In this document: in pieces, positions 6,332 through 42,530 of the stretch
Numbering within the stretch: the first letter of the stretch is position 1
How the letters are laid out: every line of letters starts with the position of its first letter
DNA from: Anaerovoracaceae bacterium
GTDB taxonomy: Bacteria > Bacillota > Clostridia > Peptostreptococcales > Anaerovoracaceae
Direction of reading: 5' to 3'
Length of the DNA: 64,000 bases
Assembly: GCA_045642105.1 (NCBI GenBank)
Contig: JAZUII010000013.1
Location: forward strand, 11,669 to 75,668
Translations under genes and position numbers: made by a program
The notes under the pieces: generated by a model
What the model was told of the DNA's origin: nothing
The model's database searches: none
The model's input: the letters and a program-made list of their open reading frames with translations, nothing else

Positions 6332-7351
6332 CTATTCTCCTATTCTCTCAACCAGAACATCAATTACTCCGCCGCAGACCATTCCCGAGTTCTGTGCGTC
6401 GCTCTCTCCTACTCTCACCATCTGACTCACAAAGGAATCCTCCGAGAGCTTCTCTACTGCAAATCTGATTGCCTGAGCCTCTGCAAGACCTCCACCGATT
6501 GTGCCTATTTTGCTTCCGTCGCTCTTTACTATCATCTTTGTTCCGGGATCGCGAGGTGATGCATTCTCTTTTCTGATAAGAGTTACAAGCATCATTGCTT
6601 CTTTGCCGTCGGCAATTGCATCAACCTGTTCATCTGAGAAAGCTTTGTTTCCTGAATGCTCTGCATTCTTGTTCTGAATTATCTGACCGATAATTGCAAT
6701 TGCAATCTCTTCAGGTGTCTGTGCATTAATATCGAGGCCGATTGGAGTATTCAGCTTGTCGAACAGACTGAGATCGAATCCTTTTGCGTCCAGATTTGTC
6801 TTGATTGCGTTGACCTTCTTTGGTGAGCCGAGCATTCCGATATATGCAGACTCGAGAGGAAGCAGCACCTCTAGATTCATCTGATCCAGTGCATGTGCTC
6901 TCATCATTGTAACGATGTACATGTCCGGGTCACTCTTAAGCGACTTGAGATTCTCTGCAACATTTCCCTCAATCACAACATCTGCACCGGCCGTTCTTGC
7001 CAGCTCTGCAAACTCAGGTCTGTCCTCATAGCAGTTTACCTTCATCTCGACAAGTTTACCTGCCTTAATGCATGCAAGACCTACATGTCCTGCTCCACAT
7101 ACAACGAGCTCAGGAACTGACTCCAGAACCTCGCAGAAAACCTGTCTGCCGTCCATCTCGTATACGCCTGTTCTGTTAATTCCGGCAAAAGCCTTAATAT
7201 GTGCTTTCATAAAAGCAAGCTCGCCCGCGCTGTGGACAATTTCTTCTCCGGATATGAGTGTCTTTGATGCGACACCATCCTCCAGAACAGAAGCTATTAC
7301 ATTGTGTGAATAGAGCTCTACGTCTCTGATGATTTTAAATATTTCTCTCAT
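6332..7351 (-). CDS. XdhC/CoxI-family accessory protein (YqeB-like)
   Basis: 339-aa protein. N-terminal XdhC_CoxI-like region plus Rossmann-like VVCGAGHVGLA, as in Mo-cofactor insertion chaperones. Confidence 0.7.
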   Translation of the reverse strand: MREIFKIIRDVELYSHNVIASVLEDGVASKTLISGEEIVHSAGELAFMKAHIKAFAGINRTGVYEMDGRQVFCEVLESVPELVVCGAGHVGLACIKAGKLVEMKVNCYEDRPEFAELARTAGADVVIEGNVAENLKSLKSDPDMYIVTMMRAHALDQMNLEVLLPLESAYIGMLGSPKKVNAIKTNLDAKGFDLSLFDKLNTPIGLDINAQTPEEIAIAIIGQIIQNKNAEHSGNKAFSDEQVDAIADGKEAMMLVTLIRKENASPRDPGTKMIVKSDGSKIGTIGGGLAEAQAIRFAVEKLSEDSFVSQMVRVGESDAQNSGMVCGGVIDVLVERIGE

Positions 7352-7367: not shown

Positions 7368-8060
7368 TTACCTAAAACTGTTGCATATGCCATCGACTTC
7401 CTTAACTGCCGCTTCTACGGTTTCTGAATCAGATAACAAATCTGTTTTGTTCAGTATGAAATGAAAAGCTCTTCCGTTCACGCACTTACGAAGTCCCGAT
7501 TCCGATTGAGCGATTGTAATAATATCGTCCAGCGTTATAAAATCTTCCGGTTTTTTCCCAAGAAAGGCCGCGAAATCCTCCGGTCTGTAGGCTGTCGTCT
7601 CAATAATGCCGCCAATAGCGTCTGCACCAAGTACTCCAATAACAACATCAGTGCAGTCCCATATCACAGGTTCCCACGGTGCCGGAACCTTGACACATTT
7701 CATCTGAGCGCCATCTGCCTCAACAATCATTACATCGCACATTTCGTTCAGCTCTCGGACTGTCTCACTGTCCGGAGAAGCAATTTTCTGCAGACCGTTT
7801 CTGATTGGTTCAAGAACGCCTGTGTGTACAGCCCCTTCCATTTCAAGTATCTGCCGCACCTCACTTAAAGCAGTGCTTTCTCGGTAAACAACTTCCGGAA
7901 TCTGCAGCATATGCGTCGAAGTTGTCACTACTGTTTTTTTCCCAAGCGAACGGTATTCTTCACAAAGCCTGCGAACAACAGATGTTTTGCCACCTGCACC
8001 TACTACAGAAATCACTATGTGCCCATCGGTTTTCAAATGTAATCTTTCTATTAAGCTCAT
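7368..8060 (-). CDS. YqeC-family protein (putative selenium-dependent Mo-hydroxylase accessory)
   Basis: 230-aa protein with a P-loop-like VVGAGGKTS and the size and pattern I associate with the YqeC family. Its ATG overlaps the stop of the upstream giant gene (TAATG). Confidence 0.6.
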   Translation of the reverse strand: MSLIERLHLKTDGHIVISVVGAGGKTSVVRRLCEEYRSLGKKTVVTTSTHMLQIPEVVYRESTALSEVRQILEMEGAVHTGVLEPIRNGLQKIASPDSETVRELNEMCDVMIVEADGAQMKCVKVPAPWEPVIWDCTDVVIGVLGADAIGGIIETTAYRPEDFAAFLGKKPEDFITLDDIITIAQSESGLRKCVNGRAFHFILNKTDLLSDSETVEAAVKEVDGICNSFR

Positions 8061-11000
8061 TATCGTTTTGTTGTAATAGTTTTACTTGTCCACTTTGAAT
8101 AATAGGTTTTACCGTTCTTTTTCGTATAGGTTCTTATGCGGACATAGTACTTCTTTCCACCACTGAGCTTGCTGATTTTCTTGTATGAAGCAGACTTTTT
8201 CACGCTTACAGTCTTCGCACTCGCATATGAAGACTTGAGCGAGTACTGTATCTGATAACCCGAGAACTTCTTTTGTGTTGAAGTACTTTGTTTCGTCCAC
8301 TTTGCAGTAAAGCACTTTCTTCCTGCAACAAGTTTGTAGCCCTTTACATATGATGTACTGTATCCCTTAAGAACTGTCTTTTTTGTGAGTCCGCATCTGC
8401 AGGTGTACAGCTTATATCCATCTTTACAGTTTCCTGCACTTACTGTCTTGGTCAGCACATATACATGAACATGTCCTTTGTTTTCAGGATCCTGCCAAAG
8501 TAAGATCGGGCAGCCACCATTGATATTGTCAGTATCATTGTTATATGCATCTCCGAGTGTCGTTGTAAGAGTCTTCAATTTATCCTCATCAACAACAGTT
8601 CCGGCAATACCTGCCGTTTCGCCTACAGCCGCAACAGACTCCCTGGTGCAGAAAGAATTGCTTATTTTCGTACCGGTTCCAACGGCTGCGATTCCTCCGT
8701 ATCCATTTCCGCTGAAACGAGGTCCCACATTAACGTTTCCCCTGTTATAGCAGTTCTTTACCTCAGGATATCTGTTCGATGAAGCATTAAACAGTCCTGA
8801 TACATAAGGTTCACTGTATCTGCTGTTGCTTATAATTTCTCCAGCATTGTATGAATTGTAAAGTTTTGGAGTATTCACGGTCGTATATCCAACAAGACCG
8901 CCTGCATAAATTGTATATCCCTCAGCTGTAACTGATCCTGCATTCACGCAGGAATCGATTGTCAGCGCACCGGTAACAACTGCGGAAAGGCCTCCAACCG
9001 CACACAGCGGATCCTTGGATTCGGATGTCATGGTCGATGAAATATCTCCATAGTTTGCACAATTTATCACTGTCGCCTTCGACTCGCAGAGAGCTACAAG
9101 ACCGGCATTATTGCAGAATGTACCATCTACATTTCCGTAGTTATAGCAATTCTCGATGCGTACATCATTTGATTCACCAAGAGTAGTATCCAGCTTAGAG
9201 ACTTTGCTTACAATTCCACCCAGACTGTGTGTTCCTGTAATTGTTCCCTTATTATCACAATTCTTTATTACAGTTGTACCGCAGGCATCACCGACAATTG
9301 CGCCTGTTTCTTTACAATTTTCAAGCACAACTTTATTGCAGCAATTCTCAATGATTGTATTCTTCGCTTTTCCGGCAAAAACGCCTGTATCACCTGCTGT
9401 TGCCCAGAATCTGCCCTCGATAGTGAGGTTCTTTATTGTTGCGCCATCTGTAAATCCGAAGATTCCTCCGTGATTACCTGTAATATTACCTACAATTGGA
9501 ACTGCATGGCTTACATAAATATTACTGATGGTATATCCGCAGCCATTAAATACACCCTTAAATGTATCTCTGTTGTTTCCAACTGTTCTCCAGAGTCTGC
9601 GGCCGCCGTTCTCATCAGGATTTATCAGGTCGATATCATTTCCGAGTTTAATGGTTTTGCCTGCAAAATCTGAACCGCCTTCATCAACTCCATCGCAAAG
9701 GATCTTTGCCATTCCGGCAAGCTCTCGCGCATTCGTAAGAGTATATACAGTGTCGGACTCATGGCCGTAATACCAGGATGTGTCGGCATATGTAGCCCAG
9801 TCCTTAAGCTGAGTTTTGGGTTCTAATCTTACAAGAACATCTGCATTTCCTGTTACCTTTAACTGTTTCTGACTGGCAGGAACAGCTTCTGCTGAATCCG
9901 GATCAACTGCACTCGCCTTACCGAATCTGCCTGTATATTCATAGTTTACATCAGGTGGTGCAGCACCTTCTTTTAACTTACCAGACAGTTCCAGCACATC
10001 ATCTGCATATATAGTATCACCATCGGAAAGAGTCTCTCCCTTTCCAAGGCCGTCTATGGAGCTCTGGATACGCTTTACCTCAATAGTGTAATCACTGCTT
10101 TTTGCAATGGAAAGAATTGCAGTACCTCTCTCTACAAAAGCGCCGGATATTGTTACGTCCTCTGTAACGGTATAGAAATCATTGTTGACCGCCTCCCCGT
10201 TTGCGAGGTAATTTGCAAGTCTGTAACCGCTGTTTCCTGTATTGCTCAGGTTGATTGTAGTTCCATAAGGAACAGTGAATGCCGATGAATGACCATCTGC
10301 AGATACCGTACCGTTTTCAGCTGAAGCAATAGATACCGTACAGGAGGTAGCCTTTTTCTCCTTCTCAAAATACAGTAACGGATGCTCGCTTCCTTTTACA
10401 AAAATATTTCCATTTTTGTTCAACTGAGTAAGAACTCTGCTGTTCATCTCTTCCGCAGAAACAGCCTCCACGTTTCCTACATATGCATAGCTGTTATTTC
10501 CAAGATAAACACCCTGTGCTCTGACTGATGATGTGAAAGGATCTATATAGTAGCAGTTGTCAATCTCATATTCCGCAGCTGCATCGCCATCATAGCTGAT
10601 CTCGCCTCCGGCATAAGTGATATCGGTATCATTTTCCGGAGTTCCAGGACCAGCCTTTATAATTGATGCATTCTGAACATCCCCTACATTGAAACAATTG
10701 TAAATGTTCGCACCTACATTATTGCTGCCCCAGCCGTAACCGTTGCTTCCTACGATACCTCCAATTTCTGATTCGACACATCTGACCGTACCTGCATTGT
10801 AGCAGTTACGAATTATGCTTTTGCCCCAAGGAGCTCCCACGATACCGGCACAGCCAACCTTATCTGTACCTCTTACTGTTGCATAATTTGCACAGTTCTC
10901 AACGATGACTGTTCCGCTTGTCTGTCCGATACGTCCTACAATTCCGCCGGTTCCCCTGCGGCCTTTGATACTTCCTCTCAGAACAAGATTTCTTACTGCC

Positions 11001-12136
11001 GGTGCATATCCCTCATTGCTGTATACTTCAATCTTGTTATCTTTAGCTGAATTCTTTATTGTGTCAACTCCGCCTCCAAGATAACCGATCAGACCGACGT
11101 TCCATGTATATCCATAGCCTTTTGAGCTGAATCTGTTGCAGTTAACTGTAATAGTATGACCATGTCCGTCAAAAATACCCTGGAATCTTGTATCGATAAC
11201 TTTAACCTCATCGCCCTTCAGATTCTGATCATTCTTGACAATCATCGCATACTTTCCGCCAATAGGAATGTAGTTCTTTTCGGTGCCCATATCAATATCC
11301 GCAGTAATATTGATAGTACGATATCTCATATCGTTGTACAGGTCATCTTCTCCCAGTATTCCTGTTTCTCTAGCCTTTGGCTGTCTGTATGCTATATCAT
11401 CAACTCCGCCGCCCTGCTGCTCTAACAGCTGAACATGCCATGGCTCAGTCTGGATGTATTTATCTATATCCTCTCGTCTTAGGGCCTTTATCTGATCTTC
11501 AGTTGTTTCATTCGGATCGATCATTCCGTTTACTATGACAGCTACACCTGCAAGCTGTGCCGGAGTAGAAATATCATACGAGCTTTTCTCAGGATCATAC
11601 CAGCTGATATCTACTGCACCATCCCATACTTTTGTGTCAAAAAATGTTGCGTCAATTGTCAGCTCGCTGCTGTCAAGTTCAGTTATATCATAAGAAAAGG
11701 TATATCCTTCTGCAGGATTGCTACCCTCTTTGTATTCGAAATCAATGTATTTTTCGCTGTTGTCACCGTATAGAATTCGGATTGAAGCAAGATCATATCC
11801 TGCATCAGGCATTGCAACGCCTGAAACAATACCATCTTCACACTTGACTTCAACTGTTCCGTTCTGGAGCTCGTTAACTGAGACTGATTCATCATCATTT
11901 GATGCAGCCTCTTCCTCATCCGGTAACACTGTCCCTGATTCTTCATTAACGCTGTCATTCTCATCCTGGTTTGGAGAATCTTCATCAAGCGCTTCTGCCT
12001 TATCAAGAAACTCTGAACTAAGCTGTGTTTCTTCGTCTTCTGCATACGCAGCATTTACCTCAAATGGTGCATATGCTACGAGCATTGCTACCGAAAGAAC
12101 AATGCCCAGAATTTTCTTTTGCATTCTCATGTTCAT
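8060..12136 (-). CDS. giant secreted GLUG-motif repeat protein with C-terminal FN3-like module
   Basis: Signal peptide MNMRMQKKILGIVLSVAMLVAYAPFEVNA. Two tandem modules, each opening with D(I/T)SWY...LAG(V/M)A and followed by many NC.N.G.V...GGIVG repeats. C-terminal ...GYQIQYSL...KKYYVRIRTY...YYSKWT. Start chosen at 12136 (the ORF opens at 12259). Confidence 0.8.
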   Translation of the reverse strand: MNMRMQKKILGIVLSVAMLVAYAPFEVNAAYAEDEETQLSSEFLDKAEALDEDSPNQDENDSVNEESGTVLPDEEEAASNDDESVSVNELQNGTVEVKCEDGIVSGVAMPDAGYDLASIRILYGDNSEKYIDFEYKEGSNPAEGYTFSYDITELDSSELTIDATFFDTKVWDGAVDISWYDPEKSSYDISTPAQLAGVAVIVNGMIDPNETTEDQIKALRREDIDKYIQTEPWHVQLLEQQGGGVDDIAYRQPKARETGILGEDDLYNDMRYRTINITADIDMGTEKNYIPIGGKYAMIVKNDQNLKGDEVKVIDTRFQGIFDGHGHTITVNCNRFSSKGYGYTWNVGLIGYLGGGVDTIKNSAKDNKIEVYSNEGYAPAVRNLVLRGSIKGRRGTGGIVGRIGQTSGTVIVENCANYATVRGTDKVGCAGIVGAPWGKSIIRNCYNAGTVRCVESEIGGIVGSNGYGWGSNNVGANIYNCFNVGDVQNASIIKAGPGTPENDTDITYAGGEISYDGDAAAEYEIDNCYYIDPFTSSVRAQGVYLGNNSYAYVGNVEAVSAEEMNSRVLTQLNKNGNIFVKGSEHPLLYFEKEKKATSCTVSIASAENGTVSADGHSSAFTVPYGTTINLSNTGNSGYRLANYLANGEAVNNDFYTVTEDVTISGAFVERGTAILSIAKSSDYTIEVKRIQSSIDGLGKGETLSDGDTIYADDVLELSGKLKEGAAPPDVNYEYTGRFGKASAVDPDSAEAVPASQKQLKVTGNADVLVRLEPKTQLKDWATYADTSWYYGHESDTVYTLTNARELAGMAKILCDGVDEGGSDFAGKTIKLGNDIDLINPDENGGRRLWRTVGNNRDTFKGVFNGCGYTISNIYVSHAVPIVGNITGNHGGIFGFTDGATIKNLTIEGRFWATAGDTGVFAGKAKNTIIENCCNKVVLENCKETGAIVGDACGTTVIKNCDNKGTITGTHSLGGIVSKVSKLDTTLGESNDVRIENCYNYGNVDGTFCNNAGLVALCESKATVINCANYGDISSTMTSESKDPLCAVGGLSAVVTGALTIDSCVNAGSVTAEGYTIYAGGLVGYTTVNTPKLYNSYNAGEIISNSRYSEPYVSGLFNASSNRYPEVKNCYNRGNVNVGPRFSGNGYGGIAAVGTGTKISNSFCTRESVAAVGETAGIAGTVVDEDKLKTLTTTLGDAYNNDTDNINGGCPILLWQDPENKGHVHVYVLTKTVSAGNCKDGYKLYTCRCGLTKKTVLKGYSTSYVKGYKLVAGRKCFTAKWTKQSTSTQKKFSGYQIQYSLKSSYASAKTVSVKKSASYKKISKLSGGKKYYVRIRTYTKKNGKTYYSKWTSKTITTKR

Positions 12137-12215: not shown

Positions 12216-13502
12216 TTACTTCTTAATTGTAATAGTCTTGATTGCGCTGTATGCGCCATATACCTTCTTGCCGTTTACTGTTCTGTATGCTTTAACCTTA
12301 AAGCTGTACTTCTTTCCCTTTGTAAGGCTCTTTACACTGTATGCTGACTTTGTTGTAGCAGGCTTAACTGACCATGACTTTGCACCGCTCTTCTTGTATG
12401 CAACAACATATCCGCTTGCCTTGCTGACTTTTGTCCATGAAAGGCTTGCTGTTCTCGTGTACTTGTTCGAAGCCTTTAATCCGCTCACTCTTGCAGGTGT
12501 GAATGCTACTTTGTTAACTGTTACATCAACAGTCTCCTCAAGATCTCCGCAAGCTGCCTTAACTACGCAAGTTCCGATTCCGGTAGGTGTAACCTTACCA
12601 TTAGCATCAACTTTTGCAATCTTCTCATTATCGCTTGACCATACAACAGGCTCTGTGTATGCAGCACCTGCAGGATCAAATGATACGTTTACCTTCTGTG
12701 CTGCATCCTTGTTGAATGTAAGCTGGCTCTGATCGAGAGTCATTGACTCAGCCACAGGTGTAACTATGTTGATTCTTACAAAGTTGTTAATTGAGTATCT
12801 CGCATTACAGTCGATTGCAGACTTTGATCCTTTTGGATCATCAATCTGAGTAGGTGCTGCAGGATCCAGTCCTTCATAAGCATCTCCGCTGTTTCCAATT
12901 GCAAGAGATGTCTTTGTTGCTGACCAGAAACCCTCGTCGTCAATGCTGTCAAGAGCATCACAGGCAGCATCATATGTTAAATATGTGCTTGCTGATACAC
13001 GTGTGCACAGAATAGGTGTTACCTCTGCATATCTCTTTGATGATACCTTAATAAACTTTCTTCCATCTACACTGTTTTCTGTATCCCATGCGCCCTTCAT
13101 AACTCTAGTGGAGTCAATAAGGTGATCAACCGCAAGCGGATTCTTTCCTGTCATGCTGGTTCCCTCACAGAGATAAATAGTTGATCCGCCAAGCTGTTCT
13201 TCAGTATAACCAAAGAGCTCAAATACCTTATTCAGATCAACACCCTGCTTGATCATGTACTTTACTACACCGTACTCTTTCTTTGTTGCCTGAGGGAAAA
13301 CCTGTGCCTCATCCATTTCATTCTCGTTGAGCCACTCGCGTGAAATGTAACCTTTTACTTCACCGTTAACGCAGAACTCGATGTTATCAACTGAAGCTTC
13401 AGCATCTTCGGCAAATGCAGCTACCGATGCAAATGGAATCATTGTGAATACCATTGCAAGAGCAAGCATAAGTGCGCCGGTTTTCTTTAATAACTTACTC
13501 AT
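12216..13502 (-). CDS. secreted protein: unknown N-domain, Big_2-like Ig domain, C-terminal FN3-like module
   Basis: GGAGG RBS. Signal peptide MSKLLKKTGALMLALAMVFTMIPFASVAAFA. Big_2-like VVWSSDNEKIAKVDANGKVTPTGIGTCVVKA. Tail SLSWTKV..GYVVAYKK...KKYSFKVKAY. No sortase signal or TM anchor. Confidence 0.75.
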   Translation of the reverse strand: MSKLLKKTGALMLALAMVFTMIPFASVAAFAEDAEASVDNIEFCVNGEVKGYISREWLNENEMDEAQVFPQATKKEYGVVKYMIKQGVDLNKVFELFGYTEEQLGGSTIYLCEGTSMTGKNPLAVDHLIDSTRVMKGAWDTENSVDGRKFIKVSSKRYAEVTPILCTRVSASTYLTYDAACDALDSIDDEGFWSATKTSLAIGNSGDAYEGLDPAAPTQIDDPKGSKSAIDCNARYSINNFVRINIVTPVAESMTLDQSQLTFNKDAAQKVNVSFDPAGAAYTEPVVWSSDNEKIAKVDANGKVTPTGIGTCVVKAACGDLEETVDVTVNKVAFTPARVSGLKASNKYTRTASLSWTKVSKASGYVVAYKKSGAKSWSVKPATTKSAYSVKSLTKGKKYSFKVKAYRTVNGKKVYGAYSAIKTITIKK

Positions 13503-13617: not shown

Positions 13618-13974
13618 TTAGTTGCCAATCTCCATCTTGGAGCCATTCGAGGCAATGACATAGTACTGATCGGTTTCAGGGTCATAATATACAGTACCCT
13701 GTTTCTCAAGCTTACTTGAATTGTCTTCCTTCTTCTGAAGATCGTCGTCTGTGAAACTTGAAACAGCCTTGTCCTTATCTACCTTCTCTGTTACCTGCCC
13801 ATTCTCTGAAACATTGAGATTCCAGCTGATAATCAGGGCAAGCATTATTCCTACGGCCAGAACAAGCATTGCATCAACAAGATTGGCAACAGTTGCCATA
13901 GGATTCACTTCTTCTCTTGCTCTGCCTCCAGAATGACCACCTCTAAGTCGTCCACTTCCATTACGCCTCAGCAT
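13618..13974 (-). CDS. DUF2149-like single-pass protein (ExbD/TolR-like topology)
   Basis: Basic N-terminus, then NPMATVANLVDAMLVLAVGIMLALIISW (a TM helix with an embedded Asp), then an extracytoplasmic tail of about 70 aa. ATG 13974 overlaps the ExbB-like stop by 14 nt. Confidence 0.6.
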   Translation of the reverse strand: MLRRNGSGRLRGGHSGGRAREEVNPMATVANLVDAMLVLAVGIMLALIISWNLNVSENGQVTEKVDKDKAVSSFTDDDLQKKEDNSSKLEKQGTVYYDPETDQYYVIASNGSKMEIGN

Positions 13975-14608
13975 GCTTCTTCTCAACCTCCAGTACACAT
14001 TCCATTAAAGTCTCAAGGACCGACATGTAATCGTCGTACCATCTTCCTCTGATGGTGGAAATAACCATTGCTGTAGCTGCGGCAATCAGGCCCAGAATTG
14101 TAGTATCAAACGCTGTCAAAAGCGATGATGAAAGTGTTACTGTATCGCCCTGTCCTAACGCAATGATTCCCGGGCCAAGCGGAATCAATGTACCGAGAAG
14201 ACCCAGCATAGGTCCGATTTTAGCTATAATATCGGAAATATTTAATCGTCTGTCATAGAAGCTCTGTTCTTCCTGAATAAGTCTGACCGCAAGGGATTCT
14301 CTCATCAGAGGTGTAAGCTCAGGATGACTTGTTAATTCCATTAATGCCGCCTTCTGTCTCTTCAGCAACTTGCTTTTTCTGATGCATTCTCTTAATTCAT
14401 CAGTATTCATTGTCTCATTAAGTGAATCTACCAGCTTAGGCAGCTTAGCCTTGAGGTGTCTGTGCTCTGTGAACTGCTCAATAAATATCCATCCAATCAT
14501 GAAAACTGATATTGCAATCAGAACCAGCAGCAGTATAACTACCGGTGTTTGCATTGCTCCCGCAATGCCTCTCATCGCTTTACTTAAAATATTCATACTT
14601 TCTTCCAT
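13961..14608 (-). CDS. MotA/TolQ/ExbB-family proton channel protein
   Basis: 215-aa protein with 3 TM segments. Signature-like region IGPMLGLLGTLIPLGPGIIALGQGD...LLTAFDTTILGLIAAATAMV. Confidence 0.75.
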   Translation of the reverse strand: MEESMNILSKAMRGIAGAMQTPVVILLLVLIAISVFMIGWIFIEQFTEHRHLKAKLPKLVDSLNETMNTDELRECIRKSKLLKRQKAALMELTSHPELTPLMRESLAVRLIQEEQSFYDRRLNISDIIAKIGPMLGLLGTLIPLGPGIIALGQGDTVTLSSSLLTAFDTTILGLIAAATAMVISTIRGRWYDDYMSVLETLMECVLEVEKKHAEA

Positions 14609-14611
14609 GTT

Positions 14612-15964
14612 TTAACCCCATCTCTGTTTTCTGTATCTCAGAAAACCAAAGATACCTCCTTCTACTACAATTATTCCATTTACCAAAGCCATTGTTCCTA
14701 TGAGTCTGTTTTCTTCCTCTTTAACCTGAAGCTGCTCCGCGTCATTTGACATTTCTTCCTGATAAGTGCTCATCGAAGCCTGCTCTGCCGGTGCCTGCTT
14801 TGCAAGGGCATTCTTCAGCTGATTACCAGCATCCTCTGAAAGAACATACATATAGGCAGTATCATCAGACTCCTTAACTGTATCACTGTCACTCTTAGTC
14901 TTTCCTTTTCCGTCAGAAGAACCGTTGCCACTGTCACTGCTGCCTTTTCCCGAGCCGTTTCCCTTTCCTTTTCCCGAGCCGTTTTCCTTTCCTTTTTCTT
15001 TGTCTTTTTCCTTGTCTTCTTTACCGACATGAACGGAAATATCTACAGTCGAGTCTCCTGATTTTGCGGTGATAACGGCATCTCCTTTAGCATGAAAAGT
15101 AATGTTGCCGTTCGCATCAACGCTTGCAATGGATTCATCACTGCTGGAGTAAGTAACATCATTCAGCACCTTTGATTCAAACGCGTCATCAGCAACCGAA
15201 GCAGTGATTTTCACTGAGTGCGTGGATCCTACTTTACCGCTGATATTAGTTTCTTCAGCTCCTATGCTTGGTGAACCCGAGAACATAACATATATTGTCT
15301 CAACCATTTTTGCTGACTGATAGGTTCGGTAATCTAGCGGATTTGACTGTCCGAAGCAGAGTCTGAATCGGTTTTGCGTGTTAAGTCCTGTAGAAGAAGG
15401 TTCTGCACCTTCTGTCTCTGCGGGATACCATACCCATTTATCCTCATAAGCAAGTACAACTCCTACTTTGCTGGCCTCATTCCACAGGTTTCTTTTTGCA
15501 TCTCCGTCTATATACTGACCGTCTCTTCCTATGTTTTCTGCCAGATTAGGAAAATAGTATCTGTCTGTCAGAATCAGTTCCTGCATGGTAAAAGTAGCAA
15601 AAGCACCATTTCCGCTATCGGTTGTATAAAATGCCAGACTTGATATAGACCCCTTGTCTATTCCTGCATTGTTAAGCAGACTGTCAAGTGTTGCTCCGCG
15701 TGCTGAGTCAATTGCAATCCTGTGGCCGCTTCCATCATAATAGGTATATGCAAGAAGTTCTCCGCTGGATAAGCTTTTAATATCGCTCGCACTGTATACC
15801 TTCTTCTCAATATATTCCGATGTCGGCCAGCCAAAATATCCGATTTTGAAAGTCAGCGTATCTGTTGCATTAGCATGCACTTCTGAATAACCCATACCGC
15901 CGACAAACAGGACCAGCAAGCCCGTTACTGATAGTATTTTTTTAAGCAAATTGCGTTTTTTCAT
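14612..15964 (-). CDS. surface protein: signal peptide, N-domain, Big_2-like domain, charged spacer, C-terminal TM anchor
   Basis: MKKRNLLKKILSVTGLLVLFVGG signal. Big_2-like VTYSSSDESIASVDANGNITFHAKGDAVITA. Low-complexity KEDKEKDKEKGKENGSGKGKGNGSGKGSSDSGNGSSDGKGK. C-terminal LIGTMALVNGIIVVEGGIFGFLRYRKQRWG. Confidence 0.75.
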   Translation of the reverse strand: MKKRNLLKKILSVTGLLVLFVGGMGYSEVHANATDTLTFKIGYFGWPTSEYIEKKVYSASDIKSLSSGELLAYTYYDGSGHRIAIDSARGATLDSLLNNAGIDKGSISSLAFYTTDSGNGAFATFTMQELILTDRYYFPNLAENIGRDGQYIDGDAKRNLWNEASKVGVVLAYEDKWVWYPAETEGAEPSSTGLNTQNRFRLCFGQSNPLDYRTYQSAKMVETIYVMFSGSPSIGAEETNISGKVGSTHSVKITASVADDAFESKVLNDVTYSSSDESIASVDANGNITFHAKGDAVITAKSGDSTVDISVHVGKEDKEKDKEKGKENGSGKGKGNGSGKGSSDSGNGSSDGKGKTKSDSDTVKESDDTAYMYVLSEDAGNQLKNALAKQAPAEQASMSTYQEEMSNDAEQLQVKEEENRLIGTMALVNGIIVVEGGIFGFLRYRKQRWG

Positions 15965-15974
15965 TATTTCACTT

Positions 15975-17063
15975 CTACCTCTTTATCGATCTGCTAAACA
16001 TGTGCTTCAGCTCCTTGTCGCTCAGATCGTAGTTGTAAAAGAGCTTATAGAATTCCTTTGCATCTTTATAAATATCATTCTTGAAAACTTCAGGATATGT
16101 GATTTTGCCCAGCCATCTGATTCCGAGAATCTGGTTTACTGATGGAGGAGATGACATCCAGCTGTACGGTTCACCCGGACACTCATAGTAGTGATTGTTC
16201 TTCACTGCTCTCAGCTCACTCCATTGAGAATTCTTCTTAACCTCTGCATACGGACTGTCTGGGCCGAAAACAATAATATCCGGATCAGCTTTATAGACAA
16301 TCTCAAATCCGACAGGATTACCTCCATCACTTTCATTGATTTCATCATCAAGTGTTATTGCATTCTTTGCACCGATTTTATCGATAACCGCAGCCTGCAC
16401 ACTTCCGTTAACATTCGAATTCAGACCTGTTGTTGATACTCCAAAATAGATGCTCTTCTTTTCTTTTTCTCCAATTTCTGCAGCTGCTTTATCTGCATAT
16501 TCAGACGTTTTTCTACAGTACTCTGACAGCTTTTCTGCTTTTTCTTCTCTTCCCAGAAGTTTTCCAAGCTTTATGTACATTTCGTCATAGTTATCTAAGG
16601 TCGCCTCAAGATAGACAGTAGCTATTCCCGTCTCTGACTGAATGCTGTCCATATCCTTTTTTCCGTCTTCTTTGCGCTCACCGATATCTATTATGATGTC
16701 AGGGCTGACCTTGATAAGATTCTCGATATTCAGACTTGTCTTTGTTCCGTAGAACTGGCCAAGTGTAGGCATATCTTCAAATTCCGCCGGATAGTATTTT
16801 TCCTGCGCTGTAGATGGTGATGAATTCAGTCCTACCAGCATGTCAGCAGCAAGTGTACACAGTACGATCTGTGTATTTGGTCCGGAACCTACTATTGTCT
16901 CAATATATTTCTTTACTTCAACTTCTCTACCATAGTCATCTGTAAAAATATATGTTTCGGTTCCCTCTGGATAGCTGAGTTTTGTGCCTCCGCAGGAGGA
17001 AAAAGCAAAGCATGTACCAAGGGTCAAAACTATTAATAATGCAACTGCACTTTTCTTCATCAC
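15975..17063 (-). CDS. ABC transporter substrate-binding lipoprotein (FecB/BtuF class, siderophore/haem/B12 type)
   Basis: Lipobox LGTCFAFSSCGG. The size and layout fit a class III periplasmic binding protein. Its start overlaps the ATPase stop. Confidence 0.75.
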   Translation of the reverse strand: MMKKSAVALLIVLTLGTCFAFSSCGGTKLSYPEGTETYIFTDDYGREVEVKKYIETIVGSGPNTQIVLCTLAADMLVGLNSSPSTAQEKYYPAEFEDMPTLGQFYGTKTSLNIENLIKVSPDIIIDIGERKEDGKKDMDSIQSETGIATVYLEATLDNYDEMYIKLGKLLGREEKAEKLSEYCRKTSEYADKAAAEIGEKEKKSIYFGVSTTGLNSNVNGSVQAAVIDKIGAKNAITLDDEINESDGGNPVGFEIVYKADPDIIVFGPDSPYAEVKKNSQWSELRAVKNNHYYECPGEPYSWMSSPPSVNQILGIRWLGKITYPEVFKNDIYKDAKEFYKLFYNYDLSDKELKHMFSRSIKR

Positions 17064-17860
17064 TATTCGTTCTTTCCTTTTAATGTATTTCCCAAATTTA
17101 CAGGTTCAAAGTATCTGACTCTGTCATCCTCTGTGGCTATCGTCTTAGCGTCGATACCATAAAGACGATGTATCAGATGTGAGTCCATTATCTCAGCAGG
17201 TTTTCCCTGCTTATACACTTGTCCATCCAGTATGCTGATTATTCTGTCAGCGAAATAATATGTTTGCTCCGGATTGTGAGTTGACTGGATGATGGAATAA
17301 CCTTCCAGAGCAAGATTTTTAAGTTGCTGCTGGACCTTCATCTGATTTCCATAATCAAGATTAGATGTCGGTTCATCCATAATCAGAGTACGTGCACCCT
17401 GTGCAAGGGCTCTGGATATCAGAACCATCTGCTGCTCACCTCCGGACAGCTTCATATAGTCCCTGTTAATCAGTTGAGCAATGCCCATTTTGTCAAGCGC
17501 TGCCTCTGCAAGATCTCTCTCTTTTTTTCCGGGACTGGAGAAGCCTTTTAAATGAGAGGTAGTACCCATCATAACCATATCCAGAACTGAATATGCAAAG
17601 GTTGGTTTGGCTGCCTGCGGTATGTATGCAACCAGTGAAGCCTTCTCCGATGCGCTTAAATCAAGCATATTTCTACCAGCTATCGTAATGGAACCCTGAT
17701 AGCCCTTCAGCAATCCCAGAATGCACTTGAACAGAGTGCTTTTTCCGGCGCCGTTTGCTCCCAGTATGCAAAGAAGTTCTCCCTCCCTTGCTTCCATATT
17801 TATTCCTTTTAGCACCTGATGACTGCCATACGCATATCTCAGGTCTTCTGTCTTTATCAT
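17063..17860 (-). CDS. ABC transporter ATP-binding protein (FecE/BtuD type)
   Basis: Walker A GANGAGKST, signature LSGGEQQ, Walker B LIMDEPTS. Confidence 0.9.
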   Translation of the reverse strand: MIKTEDLRYAYGSHQVLKGINMEAREGELLCILGANGAGKSTLFKCILGLLKGYQGSITIAGRNMLDLSASEKASLVAYIPQAAKPTFAYSVLDMVMMGTTSHLKGFSSPGKKERDLAEAALDKMGIAQLINRDYMKLSGGEQQMVLISRALAQGARTLIMDEPTSNLDYGNQMKVQQQLKNLALEGYSIIQSTHNPEQTYYFADRIISILDGQVYKQGKPAEIMDSHLIHRLYGIDAKTIATEDDRVRYFEPVNLGNTLKGKNE

Positions 17861-18867
17861 TATTCTCCACCTCCTCTTGTTATAAGGTAAATGAAGAACG
17901 GTGCTCCTATCACTGCGGTAAGAATTCCAATTGGAATCTCTGCGGTAAAAGCTGTCCTTGACACATCATCAACCAGCAGCAGGAAAAGCGATCCTGTCAG
18001 TATTGATGCAGGCAGCAAATACTTGAAGTTATTTCCGACTATTTTTCGACAAAAATGAGGAACAACCAGTCCGACCCAGCCTATCATTCCGCTTACTGAA
18101 ACTGCGGTTGCTGTTATAAGTGTTGCTGCAACAAGCGAAATAATTCTCACTCTGCCTACATTGACTCCCATTGTCGTCGCTTCCTGTTCACCGATTGTCA
18201 GAACATTTATTTTCCATCCCATCACAGCAATCGGAACAATACCTATTGCAATAACAATTGCTGCAAAGCTAAGGTCATTTTGAGACGCAGAAGATAATGA
18301 TCCAAGAAGCCAGTATGTGATGGCCGGCAGTTCATTAGTCTGGTCGGCAACAAGTTTTATGAAGTTTGTTCCTGCCTGCGCAATCGAGCTTATCATCAAG
18401 CCGGCAAGAACAAGCCCTACAGTCTTGTTGCCCCTGGTTCTGTTTCCGAAGAAATATACCAGCAGAATGGTAGCCATGCTGAAAACAAATGCCAGAAGTG
18501 TAATCATTCCGCCTGACAATCCAAGAATAATAGCCAGTGCCGCTCCAAATGCAGCGCCAGAAGATGCACCAAGAAAATCAGGTGCTGCCATCGGGTTCTC
18601 AAATACGCTCTGATATACCGCTCCTGCTGTTGACAAAGCTGCTCCGACAAAACAAGCCAGTATTATTCTCGGAAAACGTATTGACCAGAACACATGCTCC
18701 TGCTGAACTGTCCAGAAAGGCTGGATATCCGTCACCTGAGAGATAAGTATTCCGAACAGTTCTTTTGGATTAATAGAAAACTGTCCAAGGAACACCGAAA
18801 TGATTATCCCGGCAAACAGGGCTGCCACCATTATTAATATTGCTCGTGAGTGTTTCTTTTCTTTCAA
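17860..18867 (-). CDS. FecCD-family ABC permease
   Basis: 335-aa protein with about 9-10 TM segments and the FecCD/BtuC pattern (RFPRIILA, GxxGWVGLVVPH). Confidence 0.85.
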   Translation of the reverse strand: MKEKKHSRAILIMVAALFAGIIISVFLGQFSINPKELFGILISQVTDIQPFWTVQQEHVFWSIRFPRIILACFVGAALSTAGAVYQSVFENPMAAPDFLGASSGAAFGAALAIILGLSGGMITLLAFVFSMATILLVYFFGNRTRGNKTVGLVLAGLMISSIAQAGTNFIKLVADQTNELPAITYWLLGSLSSASQNDLSFAAIVIAIGIVPIAVMGWKINVLTIGEQEATTMGVNVGRVRIISLVAATLITATAVSVSGMIGWVGLVVPHFCRKIVGNNFKYLLPASILTGSLFLLLVDDVSRTAFTAEIPIGILTAVIGAPFFIYLITRGGGE

Positions 18868-18882: not shown

Positions 18883-20499
18883 CTAACTGTTTTTTCCAGT
18901 ATTCTCGTAGTATCTATATAAAACTTTAGTAAAAGGCGGGATGTTTGTTTCTCTTGCAGCATTCCACCTCTGCTCTTCGTATTCCTTCTCTGCCCTGATG
19001 CATTCGTGAGCCTGAATCAGAAGGTCCTCTCCTGATGTCTTGATCCCCGTCTTAAGCTCAAACATTCTGGCCATCATCTCAAAGGTTTCATCATTGTCGA
19101 GCAGTGCAAAGGCTGTGAAAATGCAGAATCCCAGATTCTCGAGTACAAAAACCTGCGCATACAGGATGTCCATCGCACTCATTCCCTTAAGTCTCGGATA
19201 TCTGCTGTCGACCTGAACATCGAAGAGGCTTTCATCCTGAATTGCTCTTCTGTCAACAAGAGATTCAGCAACCTTATCCGAGAAGAGGTCTCTTATCCCG
19301 TAGGTTCTCGAAGCAATGATTCTTCCTACAGGTGTTCCCTGCTCTATTTCATCAAGCCACTCAAGGAGATGCTCCTCGCCATGCTCGATTCCCACAGCTT
19401 CGGCATAGGCCTTTGCTGCAGTAACATACTCAACGCTGACAAGACTCATTTCGGTAGCTTTCACCTGAATATCACGAGACAGCTCATAGTCATCGATGCC
19501 GAAGCAGTTCTTTACCGCTGCCTCTACCTCTACCTGAGATGGGCTTTCGTACTTGCGTCCGTCACTGCTTGTATGTCTGTTCAGACAGCCTATTGCGCAC
19601 ATAGGGGCACATGTCTTGTTGTTCTTTCTGTTATCTCCAGAATCAGCGCACTTTTCGTTATTCTGCTTCTCGCCGAAGCTCTCAATTGCCTCAACCTTCT
19701 TTGCATCAGACTCTGCAAGCTCAGCGAGTGACGCCTTGCTTTTGAGTATTTTCATTATGGTGATCGAACCATATGTCGGAAGAGCTCCGCCGCAGACTTC
19801 ATCATTGATAATCTTCTGAACGAGCTGTTTGCTGCACTCCCAGAATTCTTCAGGATTTGCATTCTCTCTTGCAAAATAATCCTTTCCATCAATGACAAGT
19901 GCTCTCAGGTTCTTTGCGCCGAAGATATCGCCGAAGCCGCTTCGCGGGCTGTGATACTCCGGAATTCCGTGAGGATAGGTCAGGAACATAGATGACAGAG
20001 ACATCCTCATGTCACCGCACTTACCTGTTCCCAGTATTCCTATATCATCGTTGTATTCTTTCTTGAGTCCGCGAACGATTTCCCTGACACCTGCGCCATT
20101 GTATTCAGGCCTTGTTGTGAAGTCCACGCCATTGCTGTCAATATGAACAACGGTTCCTTTCTCTTCAGCAATGCCCTTGATTACGATTGCCGCAAGTCCG
20201 AGACTTCCGATTTTCTGAGGCAGATTGCCGGTCGTATTGCAGACCTGGATACCCTTACCTCTGCCCTCTGCGCTCGCCACGAACATGCGGCAGGCACTAG
20301 GCGCCTTATTGCCGGTGAAAAAGCCCGGAGCAATTACAAGTGCATTCTCTCTGCTATATCTGTCTGCATCGTCAGGCACATATTCTTTAATCAACTCAAG
20401 AACCAGGCGTCTGCCATAGAATCCGCAGTCGCTGTATGAATATGACAGTTCTTCATATGTCCTCGTATTTAAGTCAATAACAAGAATTCTTTCAGACAT
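18883..20499 (-). CDS. aldehyde:ferredoxin oxidoreductase (AOR)-family-like protein
   Basis: GGAGG precedes ATG 20499. AFOR_N-like N-terminus (ILVIDLNTRTYEE...GRRLVLELI...ALVIAPGFFTG...LGLAAIVIKG). Cys cluster CAPMCAIGC. About 60 aa shorter than canonical AORs. Confidence 0.6.
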   Translation of the reverse strand: MSERILVIDLNTRTYEELSYSYSDCGFYGRRLVLELIKEYVPDDADRYSRENALVIAPGFFTGNKAPSACRMFVASAEGRGKGIQVCNTTGNLPQKIGSLGLAAIVIKGIAEEKGTVVHIDSNGVDFTTRPEYNGAGVREIVRGLKKEYNDDIGILGTGKCGDMRMSLSSMFLTYPHGIPEYHSPRSGFGDIFGAKNLRALVIDGKDYFARENANPEEFWECSKQLVQKIINDEVCGGALPTYGSITIMKILKSKASLAELAESDAKKVEAIESFGEKQNNEKCADSGDNRKNNKTCAPMCAIGCLNRHTSSDGRKYESPSQVEVEAAVKNCFGIDDYELSRDIQVKATEMSLVSVEYVTAAKAYAEAVGIEHGEEHLLEWLDEIEQGTPVGRIIASRTYGIRDLFSDKVAESLVDRRAIQDESLFDVQVDSRYPRLKGMSAMDILYAQVFVLENLGFCIFTAFALLDNDETFEMMARMFELKTGIKTSGEDLLIQAHECIRAEKEYEEQRWNAARETNIPPFTKVLYRYYENTGKNS

Positions 20500-20569
20500 A
20501 AAAACCTCCATTAACAGCACGAAAAATATGGCGCTATGAAGCGTCAGTCGTACATGTATATTTTATTGC

Positions 20570-20601
20570 AAAAAAAAGACTCGGTCTAATAGACCGAGTC
20601 T
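20570..20601 (-). terminator. intrinsic terminator after the MATE gene
   Basis: agactcggtct-aat-agaccgagtct, an 11-bp stem followed by U7 on the minus strand. Confidence 0.8.
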
Positions 20602-23029: not shown

Positions 23030-23035
23030 ATATCT

Positions 23036-29888: not shown

Positions 29889-29949
29889 TCTATATCCCCT
29901 TTCGTACAATCAGAGCAAGCCTGCGACCTGCTCTGACGTCGTGCATTTT

Positions 29950-31053: not shown

Positions 31054-31462
31054 GTTGAGCCTCCCTTTCTTACTACGTATAGCATTATAGCACATGGCAG
31101 CCTTCTCCGAAACATGCGACTAAGCTCATTGCCAGTCTTCGTTCTTAAGAATTCGGTTTTTCTCTGCAAAAATTTAGAATTTTTCGTTCGTCAGATAACA
31201 TTTAAAGCGAAGTTCTTTAGATAATACCTTCTGCTGCATTGCGAAATTTATCGATGTTTGTCGAAAGATGTCGAAAAAGCGCGAAATTTTCAAGCTTCTG
31301 GCAGCAGCGCTTCGACATCTTTCTTCCAATAAAGGCTGCAAAAGTAAGAAATCGGTCTTCCAAACGGCGGCGATACGCCGCCGTTCTAAAGTTTCGACCG
31401 ATTTCTTTCGATTCTTAAGAACAAGCAGTGGCAATGCCACTGCTTTCGCGTAAATGTCGAAA

Positions 31463-42111: not shown

Positions 42112-42305
42112 ACTCTTTCCCCTTTCTACGCCCTCTCCGGAAGCCCCGGGAGAACACGCCTATGTGAACATATAGACCCTCGTATTTTACCGCATACAAG
42201 ACATTCATTCAAGCAGAGCACCTGATAATTATGTGCCTGCCCAGCTGCTGGCTATGTTGAAAGAGACCGGTCCCTGTGGTATTATTCTCTTTGTTAAAAC
42301 AAAAT

Positions 42306-42381
42306 GTCTCAGTAGCTCAGGGGACAGAGCACCGCTCTCCTAAAGCGGGTGTCGGAGGTTCGAATCCTCTCTGGGACACCA
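42306..42381 (+). tRNA. tRNA-Arg (anticodon CCT)
   Basis: Folded by hand into a 76-nt cloverleaf. Acceptor GTCTCAG/CTGGGAC, D arm GCTC/GAGC, anticodon stem CCGCT/AGCGG with loop CTCCTAA, T arm GGAGG-TTCGAAT-CCTCT. CCA is encoded. Confidence 0.9.
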
Positions 42382-42433
42382 CACTTGCAATATTCGAACT
42401 TTTACTTCTACCCCGGCGGATTCGCTGTAGAAG

Positions 42434-42480: not shown

Positions 42481-42530
42481 TGTTTCAATTGAGGTTAAAT
42501 CACTTAATTACTTCCTATAATACATCCTCA

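Follow-up and report, generated by a model that had tools for sequence, protein, structure and literature searches.

A conserved Clostridial locus linking a candidate ExbB/DUF2149 motor pair to a C-terminally anchored putative receptor and nutrient importers

A 64,000-nucleotide stretch of the genome of an Anaerovoracaceae bacterium (assembly GCA_045642105.1, contig JAZUII010000013.1, positions 11,669 to 75,668 of the forward strand; hereafter ‘the window’) carries on its minus strand six tightly packed genes, encoding an ABC importer with its substrate-binding protein (SBP), a channel protein of the MotA/TolQ/ExbB family with a DUF2149 partner, and a secreted, C-terminally anchored protein that we call X. 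Motors of the ExbBD, TolQR and MotAB type are understood to carry energy from the inner membrane to the outer membrane, the flagellum or a gliding track, and homologues in single-membrane organisms have so far been left unexplained or dismissed as vestigial. The open reading frames (ORFs) listed by the original prediction, which was made from the sequence alone, are all present on the minus strand:

17860..18867, minus strand: FecCD/BtuC-type permease of a type II ABC importer (Pfam FecCD, E=1.9e-88)
17063..17860, minus strand: ABC importer ATPase (Pfam ABC_tran, E=6.9e-29)
15975..17063, minus strand: substrate-binding lipoprotein with lipobox ...AFSSC, the SBP (Pfam Peripla_BP_2, E=2.6e-19)
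14612..15964, minus strand: X, 450 aa, with Sec signal peptide, sulfite-oxidase (SUOX)-like domain, Big_2 domain, disordered spacer and C-terminal anchor module
13961..14608, minus strand: MotA/TolQ/ExbB-family channel protein, 215 aa, with three transmembrane (TM) helices (Pfam PF01618)
13618..13974, minus strand: DUF2149 single-pass protein, 118 aa (Pfam PF09919)

Their packing is as that prediction described it, with a 14-nt overlap between the MotA stop and the DUF2149 start, 1-nt overlaps between SBP and ATPase and between ATPase and permease genes, and 3 nt between the X stop and the MotA start. With permease, ATPase and Peripla_BP_2 protein encoded in one operon by genes whose start and stop codons overlap, the importer has the makeup of a type II ABC importer. 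Its proteins resemble the heme/corrinoid/siderophore class only generically: the best NCBIfam match of the permease is a partial one to BtuC (PRK09535), below the cut-off of that model; the ATPase is closest to heme and corrinoid importer ATPases, again below cut-offs; and the top partial NCBIfam match of the SBP is IsdE. The closest solved relatives of the SBP are the uncharacterised binding proteins 4pag (E=2.9e-34) and 4ovk, followed more weakly by IsdE, FeuA and MolA.

Both family assignments proposed for the pair stand above the Pfam cut-offs, the larger protein matching PF01618 MotA_ExbB (E=4.9e-11; 42.9 bits, cut-off 22.9) and the smaller PF09919 DUF2149 (E=3.8e-9; 37.2 bits, cut-off 27.1), a family carried by all close homologues of the latter. 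The MotA-like protein, which has three TM helices in a hydropathy scan, aligns to residues 28-217 of Escherichia coli ExbB and keeps counterparts of both channel threonines (GLLGT against GLFGT148 in TM2, FDTT against LLAT181 in TM3); its core, GTLIPLGPG...AF-TT-GL, is invariant among 80 homologues. It falls far below the NCBIfam equivalog cut-offs for exbB (TIGR02797, 25.1 bits vs 206) and tolQ (TIGR02796, 18.7 vs 221), which rules out an ExbB or TolQ orthologue and leaves a member of the wider family. The DUF2149 protein consists of a basic N-terminal tail, a single TM helix containing Asp34, and an external part of about 65 residues that ends in an invariant G-x-V-Y-x-D-x-x-T-x-x-Y-Y motif. 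Asp34, which the original prediction had singled out as lying where ExbD keeps its TM aspartate, is invariant in all 82 homologues compared, and hhalign, aligning the TM helix only and without statistical significance (E=0.015, probability 2.9%), pairs VANLVD34AMLVL with VTPFID25VMLVL of E. coli ExbD, inside a common ...D-x-M-L-V-L... helix. As far as can be judged from sequence, the pair would work like ExbB/ExbD, with a small subunit from what appears to be a distinct family. A tblastn search of plasmids with the DUF2149 protein gave no match.

MotA/MotB-like proteins (ZorA and ZorB) also occur in Zorya anti-phage systems, and PADLOC returned a marginal ZorA match (E=0.0063, 13.6 bits). The protein matched has 215 residues, far fewer than the 505 positions of the ZorA model; no ZorB, ZorC or ZorD was found and the genetic context is one of transport, so that a Zorya-like system was rejected and has a negligible chance of being correct.

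The third member of the group, X, has the architecture that had been proposed for it (signal peptide, globular domain, Big_2 domain, spacer, C-terminal TM helix), as judged from Pfam and an AlphaFold2 model in which a signal helix precedes a confidently predicted globular domain, an Ig domain, some 100 disordered residues and a final, C-terminal helix:

15257..15868, minus strand: X ectodomain, aa 33-236, Cys-less sulfite-oxidase-like fold (AlphaFold2 and Foldseek)
15023..15247, minus strand: X Big_2 Ig-like domain, about aa 240-314 (Pfam; Ig matches in Foldseek and the PDB)
14705..15016, minus strand: X spacer, aa 317-420, rich in K, E, D, G and S and disordered, followed by two motifs (AlphaFold2, conservation)
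14615..14704, minus strand: X C-terminal TM helix, aa 421-442, with E435 and invariant G436, and basic tail RYRKQRWG

Big_2 is the only Pfam match in X (aa 258-305, E=2e-7, 31.3 bits vs a cut-off of 22.8), and a sequence search of the PDB with X returned Ig domains only, with nothing credible for the N-terminal domain (X_N). Residues 317-421 are disordered in the model, with a predicted local distance difference test score (pLDDT) below 50, and after a low-complexity stretch the protein ends in LIGTMALVNGIIVVEGGIFGFL-RYRKQRWG. X is not a TonB homologue, since it has a cleavable signal peptide, a C-terminal TM helix, a spacer rich in G, S, K, D and E, and no TonB_C match; it would at most be an analogue of TonB, outside the family. 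Nor does it resemble a sortase substrate: there is no LPXTG-type motif, and the residues before the TM helix vary across 75 loci, in which the TM glycine is conserved.

The distribution of these genes was examined by scanning one genome per GTDB species with the DUF2149 alignment as query, which found relatives in 147 species genomes, together with at least 441 further metagenome stretches; 80 loci were retained. The retained loci are Clostridial (Anaerovoracaceae, Oscillospiraceae, Lachnospiraceae, Christensenellaceae, Eubacteriaceae and Peptococcaceae), one of them bearing the label Succinivibrio, probably through mis-binning, and a profile search for more distant DUF2149 proteins gave 3984 matches, the best 120 of which are all Clostridial. 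The nearest loci lie in metagenome-assembled genomes of Mogibacterium and other Anaerovoracaceae (DUF2149 identity 62-74%) and have an identical gene order. These organisms belong to the Peptostreptococcales, monoderm Clostridia, in agreement with the monoderm setting that had been supposed for the window, and among the window ORFs scanned there is no TonB, TonB-dependent receptor or outer-membrane family.

Neighbourhood maps were built from our own ORF calls and jackhmmer searches, and only loci with enough flanking sequence to decide were counted. MotA is immediately preceded by the gene of an X-family protein in at least 65 of 71 genome loci, the remainder mostly failing on the gap threshold, and in 38 of 46 metagenome loci; DUF2149 adjoins MotA in 72/77 loci, and a Peripla_BP_2 gene directly precedes X in at least 46/61. 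X and MotA are separated by a median of 3 nt, and in nearly every locus MotA overlaps DUF2149. Conservation of a MotA_ExbB, DUF2149 and FecBCD neighbourhood, which the original prediction had proposed as a check, is thus seen across Clostridia as a near-invariant triad of X, MotA and DUF2149, accompanied by FecCD in 36 of the 44 loci with wide flanks. The triad stays constant through three gene orders, FecCD-ATPase-SBP-X-MotA-DUF2149, SBP-X-MotA-DUF2149-FecCD-ATPase-giant (the last being a gene for a giant secreted protein, described below), and one with a divergent FecCD-ATPase, and in the second of these the pair sits within the importer operon. In sister loci, an energy-coupling factor (ECF) transporter takes the place of the ABC importer. 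Recurrence of the same gene order in 147 species genomes and at least 441 metagenome stretches shows that the observation is not due to chance, and the constancy of the triad together with its tight gene coupling is as expected of the subunits of one machine and speaks decisively against a vestigial remnant.

A non-functional Ton remnant, inherited from a diderm ancestor or acquired by transfer, would accord with a 2025 survey that found Ton components in monoderm lineages likely to be non-functional (PMC12204202). Against it stand key residues that are invariant over at least 80 divergent homologues, overlapping start and stop codons, occurrence in 147 species genomes from several Clostridial families, and the lack of any involvement of TonB or a receptor of its type; we regard such a remnant as very improbable and read the locus as the core of a conserved uptake system.

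The part of X that is most conserved is its membrane end. X-family proteins form 781 clusters at 50% identity, most of 142 representatives have a C-terminal TM helix and basic tail, and across 75 loci the last ~80 residues constitute a conserved module, comprising a strand motif (Y373-x-L375-S376), an acidic motif (E-E-M405-x-x-D-A-E-Q-L412), a TM helix with glycine at position 436 in 73/75 loci, and a tail with the consensus R-[FY]-[RK]. Both spacer motifs are kept in the 75 loci, and L375, M405 and L412 are nearly invariant. The plan of this module is also kept in three proteins whose ectodomains are unrelated to that of X and which, like X, have a signal peptide, here with a G/S-rich spacer and a C-terminal TM helix with Gly:

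L008:8013-9353: X-like protein with unrelated ectodomain
L086:7948-9300: X-like protein with unrelated ectodomain
L100, ORF upstream of 9321-10007: X-like protein with unrelated ectodomain

In L008 and L100 the module stands beside sugar-type SBP and permease genes, whereas L086 has it next to an ECF S-component of the riboflavin type and an FMN_bind protein; L008 also holds URO-D and HGD-D family genes and a gene for a 943-aa SBP_bac_1 protein. Conversely, X relatives that carry an S-layer homology (SLH) anchor have an SBP neighbour and no MotA or DUF2149 neighbours. A variable head, a conserved membrane module, and the strict linkage of that module to the pair provide the main support for X as a motor adaptor. 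One X-family protein in the representative library, P0247 (415 aa), closes with a sequence resembling the C-terminus of the MotA-like protein (...RRRWYREYGSVLEALCTEVLELTKKGEAR) and may represent an X-MotA fusion or a frameshifted assembly.

We propose that the locus encodes a conserved Clostridial cell-envelope uptake system, in which an ExbBD-like motor driven by the proton-motive force (PMF) acts on X and so promotes the hand-off of a ligand through the wall; for this mechanism we put the chances at about even. X would be a Sec-exported, type I (C-terminally anchored) receptor whose heads are carried on a disordered stretch of about 100 residues, sufficient in length to extend into the wall, and the ExbB-like/DUF2149 pair would be a proton-driven, stator-type motor docking the C-terminal module of X. 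The SUOX-like domains of X, in many relatives joined by those of the giant protein, would capture the ligand in the wall; the motor would use the PMF to pull on, re-orient or strain X; and X, once moved, would release its ligand to the lipoprotein SBP for import by the permease. A TonB analogue of inverted topology had already been suggested by the original prediction, and this part of it has been strengthened by the near-invariant, tightly coupled triad, the conserved X module and the absence of the pair beside SLH-anchored X relatives; the coupling itself still has the status of an inference, and the covariation test of it described below was negative.

Several observations weigh against such a mechanism. 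The DUF2149 protein has no match to PF02472 ExbD, a profile search of the PDB found no ExbD or TolR, and homology of DUF2149 to ExbD is not statistically established. The distance from motif to TM helix in X and that from TM helix to hairpin in DUF2149 do not co-vary (rho=-0.05, p=0.67), and since the X spacer is a flexible G/S/K/D/E-rich segment with no Pro-rich rod, the transmission of force is less obvious than for TonB. Finally, the importer is no better conserved as a neighbour than the giant protein, which the motor could serve instead.

The flexible spacer and the negative linker covariation test would suit a different reading, in which the pair acts as a sensor or an ion channel and does no mechanical work, for instance by gating or regulating the importer or by signalling the state of the envelope, X being a tethered binding protein whose C-terminal conservation stems from membrane insertion or oligomerisation. 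The conserved TM Asp and two TM Thr define the proton path of a rotary stator, and a strict triad with a conserved module outside the ectodomain is what is seen in established motor-adaptor pairs (TonB/TolA, GldM, MotB); both points argue for a motor, and we consider a mere channel or sensor quite unlikely.

The proposed motor shares with TonB-ExbB-ExbD a three-TM MotA/TolQ/ExbB protein with two channel Thr, a small single-pass partner, probably of N-in topology, with a TM Asp that may correspond to ExbD D25, an adjoining gene for a third single-pass protein with a long spacer, and a tie to the uptake of scarce nutrients through a BtuCD/FecCD-class importer. Unlike the Ton system, it lacks an outer membrane, a TonB-dependent receptor, a TonB_C domain and a Pro-rich rod; its third protein is of type I, anchored at the C-terminus after cleavage of a signal peptide, and itself carries a domain of the ligand-binding type; and its small partner is a DUF2149 protein with ~65 external residues, outside the ExbD Pfam family.

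The head of X was identified by structure, through the Foldseek comparison that the original prediction had recommended. Because a search with full-length X was swamped by Big_2 matches, residues 33-236 were modelled alone (AlphaFold2, pLDDT 90), and the top 23 PDB matches of this model are all molybdenum cofactor (Moco) domains of the SUOX family, including SorA, chicken sulfite oxidase, SoxC, SorT, YedY and nitrate reductase (best E=7.6e-4). Foldseek probabilities range from 0.72 to 1.0 and are at least 0.90 for the top 22, with TM-scores of only 0.40-0.46. X itself has no Pfam match to PF00174 Oxidored_molyb; relatives recognised with the X_N profile in other loci do reach that family (27-54 bits vs a cut-off of 24). 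No Cys is invariant or nearly invariant in the X-family alignments A1 and A3, leaving no candidate for a conserved Mo-ligating residue, and the signal peptide (MKKRNLLKK...) is of the Sec type, without a twin-arginine motif. The missing Cys and the Sec signal indicate that X is not a molybdoenzyme, and an active Mo enzyme was accordingly rejected.

In related loci, SUOX-like domains occur in two to three copies in giant wall proteins, singly in lipoproteins of ~200 aa, and fused to an ECF S-component (PF09819); the loci with this fusion lack FecBCD genes and encode an ECF T-component fused to a purple acid phosphatase. Presence of the domain on wall proteins, on a membrane-proximal protein and on the capture subunit of a transporter is most simply explained if it is a cargo-binding relay module, by analogy with NEAT domains. 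Thus, X shares with the SUOX family the fold of aa 33-236, and its sister domains pass the Oxidored_molyb cut-off; it differs in lacking a Pfam match and the Mo-ligand Cys and in having a Sec-type rather than a Tat-type signal, and its domain, in places arranged in tandem or joined to the S-component of a transporter, acts like a binding module rather than an enzyme. The ECF-type variants include L024:11763-12926 and L024:14257-16251, as well as L022, L103, L026 and L040, with S-component (PF09819)-Oxidored_molyb and CbiQ T-component-purple acid phosphatase fusions, the latter of which suggests extracellular dephosphorylation of the cargo. For two further window proteins, p443 and p1399, we make no claim of a SUOX-like domain, as hhalign of X_N against them gave no significant match (E ~0.4); a sequence search of the PDB returned only Ig and fn3 domains for p443 and nothing for the giant protein.

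The six genes form part of a longer co-directional run with small gaps (AFOR-like, FecCD, ATPase, SBP, X, MotA_ExbB, DUF2149, Big_2/fn3, giant, YqeC, XdhC), for which no minus-strand terminator comparable to an upstream hairpin was found from that hairpin to ~7.2 kb. The feature is thus larger than the interval first described, and the unit very probably runs from the gene for a protein resembling aldehyde:ferredoxin oxidoreductase (AFOR) to the XdhC gene and includes two secreted wall proteins. The remaining elements of the run are:

20577..20601, minus strand: intrinsic-terminator-like hairpin and T-run, with an 11-bp stem including 6 GC pairs, then TTTTTTTT; 3' of the upstream MATE gene and the probable upstream boundary of the transcription unit
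18883..20520, minus strand: AFOR-like protein, 545 aa, first gene of the unit, 15 nt upstream of the permease gene
12216..13502, minus strand: secreted 428-aa protein with an N-domain of no known family, Big_2, and a basic C-terminal fn3 domain (Pfam Big_2 and fn3)
8060..12136, minus strand: giant secreted protein, ~1358 aa, with two ‘WDG-VD-SWYDP...’ modules, beta-helix-like repeats and a basic C-terminal fn3 domain
7368..8060, minus strand: YqeC-family protein, an accessory of selenium-dependent molybdenum hydroxylases (Pfam YqeC, E=6.1e-35)
6332..7351, minus strand: XdhC-family Moco-insertion chaperone, last gene of the co-directional run (Pfam XdhC_C and XdhC_CoxI)

The YqeC start and the stop of the giant gene overlap by 1 nt. 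In the closest relatives (L010-L021), homologues of the secreted 428-aa protein lie 3' of DUF2149 and the AFOR-like gene keeps its position. The AFOR-like protein combines an AFOR N-domain (AFOR_N, E=2.3e-33) with a degenerate C-terminal part, AFOR_C (cofactor/cluster-binding domains 2 and 3) scoring just 26.7 bits, and may bind pterin or act as a carrier instead of being an enzyme. A second AFOR-like copy lies 3' of the giant gene in L010 and L011, and a MATE gene is also found 5' of the AFOR-like gene in close relatives.

A p1399-like giant protein is encoded beside the triad in 41 of the 44 well-flanked loci, as against 36/44 for FecCD, which raises the alternative that the motor serves one or more giant wall proteins of 1000-2400 aa, acting through X as an adaptor on their secretion, retention, release or conformation, with the importer as a co-regulated neighbour. 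Locus L007 has the order X-MotA-DUF2149-giant with no importer nearby, and X has been found fused to the N-module of the giant (‘WDGTVDISWYDP...’) together with SLH domains in P0047, P0051 and P0068 (loci L004-L006), fusions that, as sequence links of the Rosetta-stone type, may connect X to the giant protein; these genes adjoin an SBP gene, with no MotA/DUF2149 or FecCD nearby. Control of the giant adhesin SiiE by SiiA/SiiB in Salmonella could serve as an analogy. Nevertheless, the immediate upstream neighbour of X is an SBP gene in most loci; one common order places the pair between SBP-X and FecCD-ATPase; the ECF swap and the fusion of a SUOX-like domain to an S-component tie the domain family to transport; and no giant protein accompanies the triad in L008, L086 and L100. 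We consider service to the giant protein unlikely. SiiA/SiiB-SiiE and GldL/GldM, the latter from Bacteroidota gliding and type IX secretion, are other uses of MotAB/ExbBD-like motors, and they resemble the uptake system proposed here in assigning a small proton-channel pair to a non-flagellar envelope task alongside very large Ig-domain surface proteins; they differ in belonging to diderms and to type I or type IX secretion systems, whereas here there is no secretion system and a tight linkage to importers.

Clues to the cargo come from the genes around the system, among which those for handling molybdenum or tungsten (Mo/W) cofactors, namely XdhC, AFOR and MobB-FdhD, adjoin it in at least five different arrangements. 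In the window and its closest relatives, an AFOR-like gene heads the unit and XdhC ends it, with a second XdhC just upstream. XdhC lies 3' of a divergent giant gene in L034/35, is the third gene of a FecCD-ATPase-XdhC operon in L113/115/138, and is found nearby in the ECF-type locus L105. L039 has a full-length AFOR and DUF364 and shares a MobB-FdhD fusion with L046; the ECF-type loci L026 and L040 have MobB/FdhD homologues and DUF364; and a YqeC gene at the system was found only in this window. The neighbouring Mo/W genes all act late, in cofactor handling, with none from early biosynthesis; the 64-kb window likewise contains no early Moco biosynthesis genes, a result that cannot show their absence from the genome. 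In nine genome loci (for example L039:5210-5971) and two metagenome loci, a DUF364/DUF4213 (‘putative heavy-metal chelation’) gene immediately precedes that of the SBP or lies close to the triad.

These neighbours, together with the molybdopterin-binding fold of X, make a Mo/W species, either the pyranopterin cofactor or an oxyanion, the best single guess at the ligand, one that we hold tentatively and at somewhat less than even chances. A number of findings count against it. Only about one locus in five has Mo/W genes within +/-10 kb; X_N lacks the Mo-ligand Cys; the closest characterised relatives of the SBP, which score at least as well as MolA, are binding proteins for heme, siderophores or Ni; and the only DUF2149 context that has been studied is heme uptake. 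No Moco, cobalamin or other riboswitch was detected upstream of the system, either at gathering threshold in the window and 21 loci or in a permissive scan of the operon leader.

That studied context is the iron-regulated heme operon hmuYRSTUV of Bacteroidota, in which HmuU is annotated as MotA/TolQ/ExbB and HmuV as DUF2149; the homology of our pair to HmuU and HmuV, like the larger unit and the SUOX-like fold, had escaped the original prediction. HmuU and HmuV are assumed, rather than shown, to energise HmuR, and HmuT, HmuU and HmuV are functionally uncharacterised. HmuS, a large extracytoplasmic protein encoded with HmuU/HmuV, has a reported C-terminal TM helix (PMC10100974) and offers a precedent for a C-terminally anchored partner of such a pair. 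Compared from published descriptions, each system has a nutrient-acquisition operon in which these two families are encoded in an identical order. They differ in that Hmu includes a TonB-dependent receptor (HmuR), a hemophore (HmuY), a CobN-like dechelatase (HmuS) and a polytopic HmuT, none of which is present here, and has no ABC importer, SUOX-like receptor or giant wall protein; HmuY, HmuR-type receptor and CobN-like HmuS families were found neither in the window nor in the related loci scanned.

Because of this precedent, heme or a corrinoid stays in contention as the ligand, and the locus might be a Gram-positive counterpart of Hmu, a tetrapyrrole-specific HmuU/HmuV module for heme or corrinoid import whose Mo/W neighbours are coincidental. 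The best NCBIfam matches of the ATPase (heme/corrinoid importers) and the top partial match of the SBP (IsdE) point the same way. All of these heme/corrinoid scores lie far below cut-offs, no scanned locus contains CobN/HmuS, HmuY, NEAT or another known heme-binding domain, the window and 21 loci have no cobalamin riboswitch, the receptor domain has a molybdopterin-binding fold, and transport genes of the sugar and riboflavin types are likewise found with the triad; we think a tetrapyrrole-specific module improbable, to the same degree as service to the giant protein.

Taken at its most specific, the uptake reading would be a wall-spanning, PMF-powered salvage of the pyranopterin (Mo/W) cofactor or a close precursor, captured by Cys-less SUOX-like domains, handed by ExbB/DUF2149 action to a BtuCD-class or ECF importer, and received in the cytoplasm by XdhC, FdhD or AFOR-like proteins, a scheme that we offer as speculative and rather doubtful. 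The literature searched holds no transporter for Mo/W cofactors, and no account of the Clostridial system came from searches on DUF2149/PF09919/COG4744/DUF2162, on monoderm ExbB proteins or on Moco salvage. MolBC-A (HI1470-72), an importer of molybdate and tungstate, is comparable as a FecCD-class Mo/W importer whose binding protein MolA (3psa, E=3e-6) is among the solved relatives of the SBP; it differs in that MolA is not the closest of these, IsdE and FeuA scoring similarly, and in having no motor, X or wall proteins.

The arrangement also recalls the Gram-positive heme relays, the Isd NEAT system and HtaA/HtaB-HmuTUV of Corynebacterium, in which large wall proteins and membrane-proximal proteins bear a repeated binding domain that passes its cargo to a Peripla_BP_2 lipoprotein and a FecCD permease; in HtaA, too, a C-terminal TM segment serves as the anchor. 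In contrast to the system described here, those relays are regarded as passive affinity cascades that lack a motor, their NEAT and CR domains have no relationship to the SUOX-like fold, and what they carry is heme. A closer parallel for the pair itself is found in methanogens, where a TolQ-linked DUF2149 protein (COG4744/arCOG03208) forms a conserved uncharacterised pair (PMC9425974). Judged from the published description, this pair links the same families in organisms without an outer membrane, and differs in that no X-type partner or importer link has been reported.

The component families and the concept of a MotA/ExbB-type motor with a single-pass adaptor were already known; new here are the setting in monoderm Clostridia, the C-terminally anchored adaptor with a SUOX-like domain, and the partners, namely BtuCD-class and ECF importers, giant wall proteins and Mo/W-cofactor chaperones. 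With a motor pair strictly linked to a stalked type I receptor and to ABC or ECF importers in more than 140 species genomes, homologues of such motors in single-membrane cells acquire a concrete, testable case. If the mechanism is confirmed, monoderms would spend PMF on capturing nutrients through the wall, using a new class of adaptor whose topology is inverted relative to TonB, and there would be a way into the uncharacterised HmuT/U/V proteins that abundant gut Bacteroidota encode and into the methanogen pair, as well as a role for a widespread Cys-less sulfite-oxidase-like domain. DUF2149-type motors might then act in general on C-terminally anchored extracytoplasmic partners, so that HmuU/HmuV of Bacteroidota would act on HmuS, not TonB, and the methanogen TolQ-DUF2149 pair would likewise be covered. 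The XdhC, MobB-FdhD and AFOR neighbours raise the possibility of Mo/W cofactor salvage in gut and rumen anaerobes; were pyranopterin salvage to prove correct, this would be the first bacterial importer of the molybdenum or tungsten cofactor and the first Ton-like energised uptake in monoderms.

Other features of the window were recorded in passing. Just upstream of the unit, 21998-24172 (minus strand) and 20631-21980 (minus strand) hold an XdhC-family gene, a histidine-phosphatase/HD fusion and a MATE transporter; the XdhC-family gene is closest to an ‘aldehyde oxidoreductase maturation factor’ model (286 bits vs a cut-off of 350), and the fusion has a partial match to the DVU_1551 family. Further upstream, 28944-31095 (minus strand) contains two adjoining genes for CobW/HypB/UreG-family GTPases, one with a DUF1980 C-terminal domain, which are putative metallochaperones without obvious link to the system.

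The region ~42300-53600 is probably an integrated mobile element, with a tRNA gene (42306-42378), a Mob_Pre relaxase (48076-49056), an AAA_25 protein (49392-50516), a pemK RNA motif (50974-51047), a large serine recombinase (52030-53553) and a lower GC content (0.36-0.40). A cyclic di-GMP-I riboswitch (47880-47966, minus strand, 64.4 bits) stands directly upstream of 45615-47813 (minus strand), which encodes a bacteriocin-type exporter (Peptidase_C39/ABC_membrane/ABC_tran), cyclic di-GMP control being unusual for such cargo; downstream of the exporter are an HlyD-family gene (42531-43652) and a gene for an Rce1-like CAAX protease (43645-44430).

The claim that other surface proteins of the window use sortase-type signals was not confirmed, as no LPXTG-like motif was found in the tail of any window ORF. 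The 1532-aa surface protein encoded by 55562-60160 (minus strand), with PI-PLC-X-like, FctA, Cna_B and Flg_new domains, ends in SDTGDNS, a hydrophobic segment and RRKKLD, a tail that has the shape of a sorting signal without the LPXTG.

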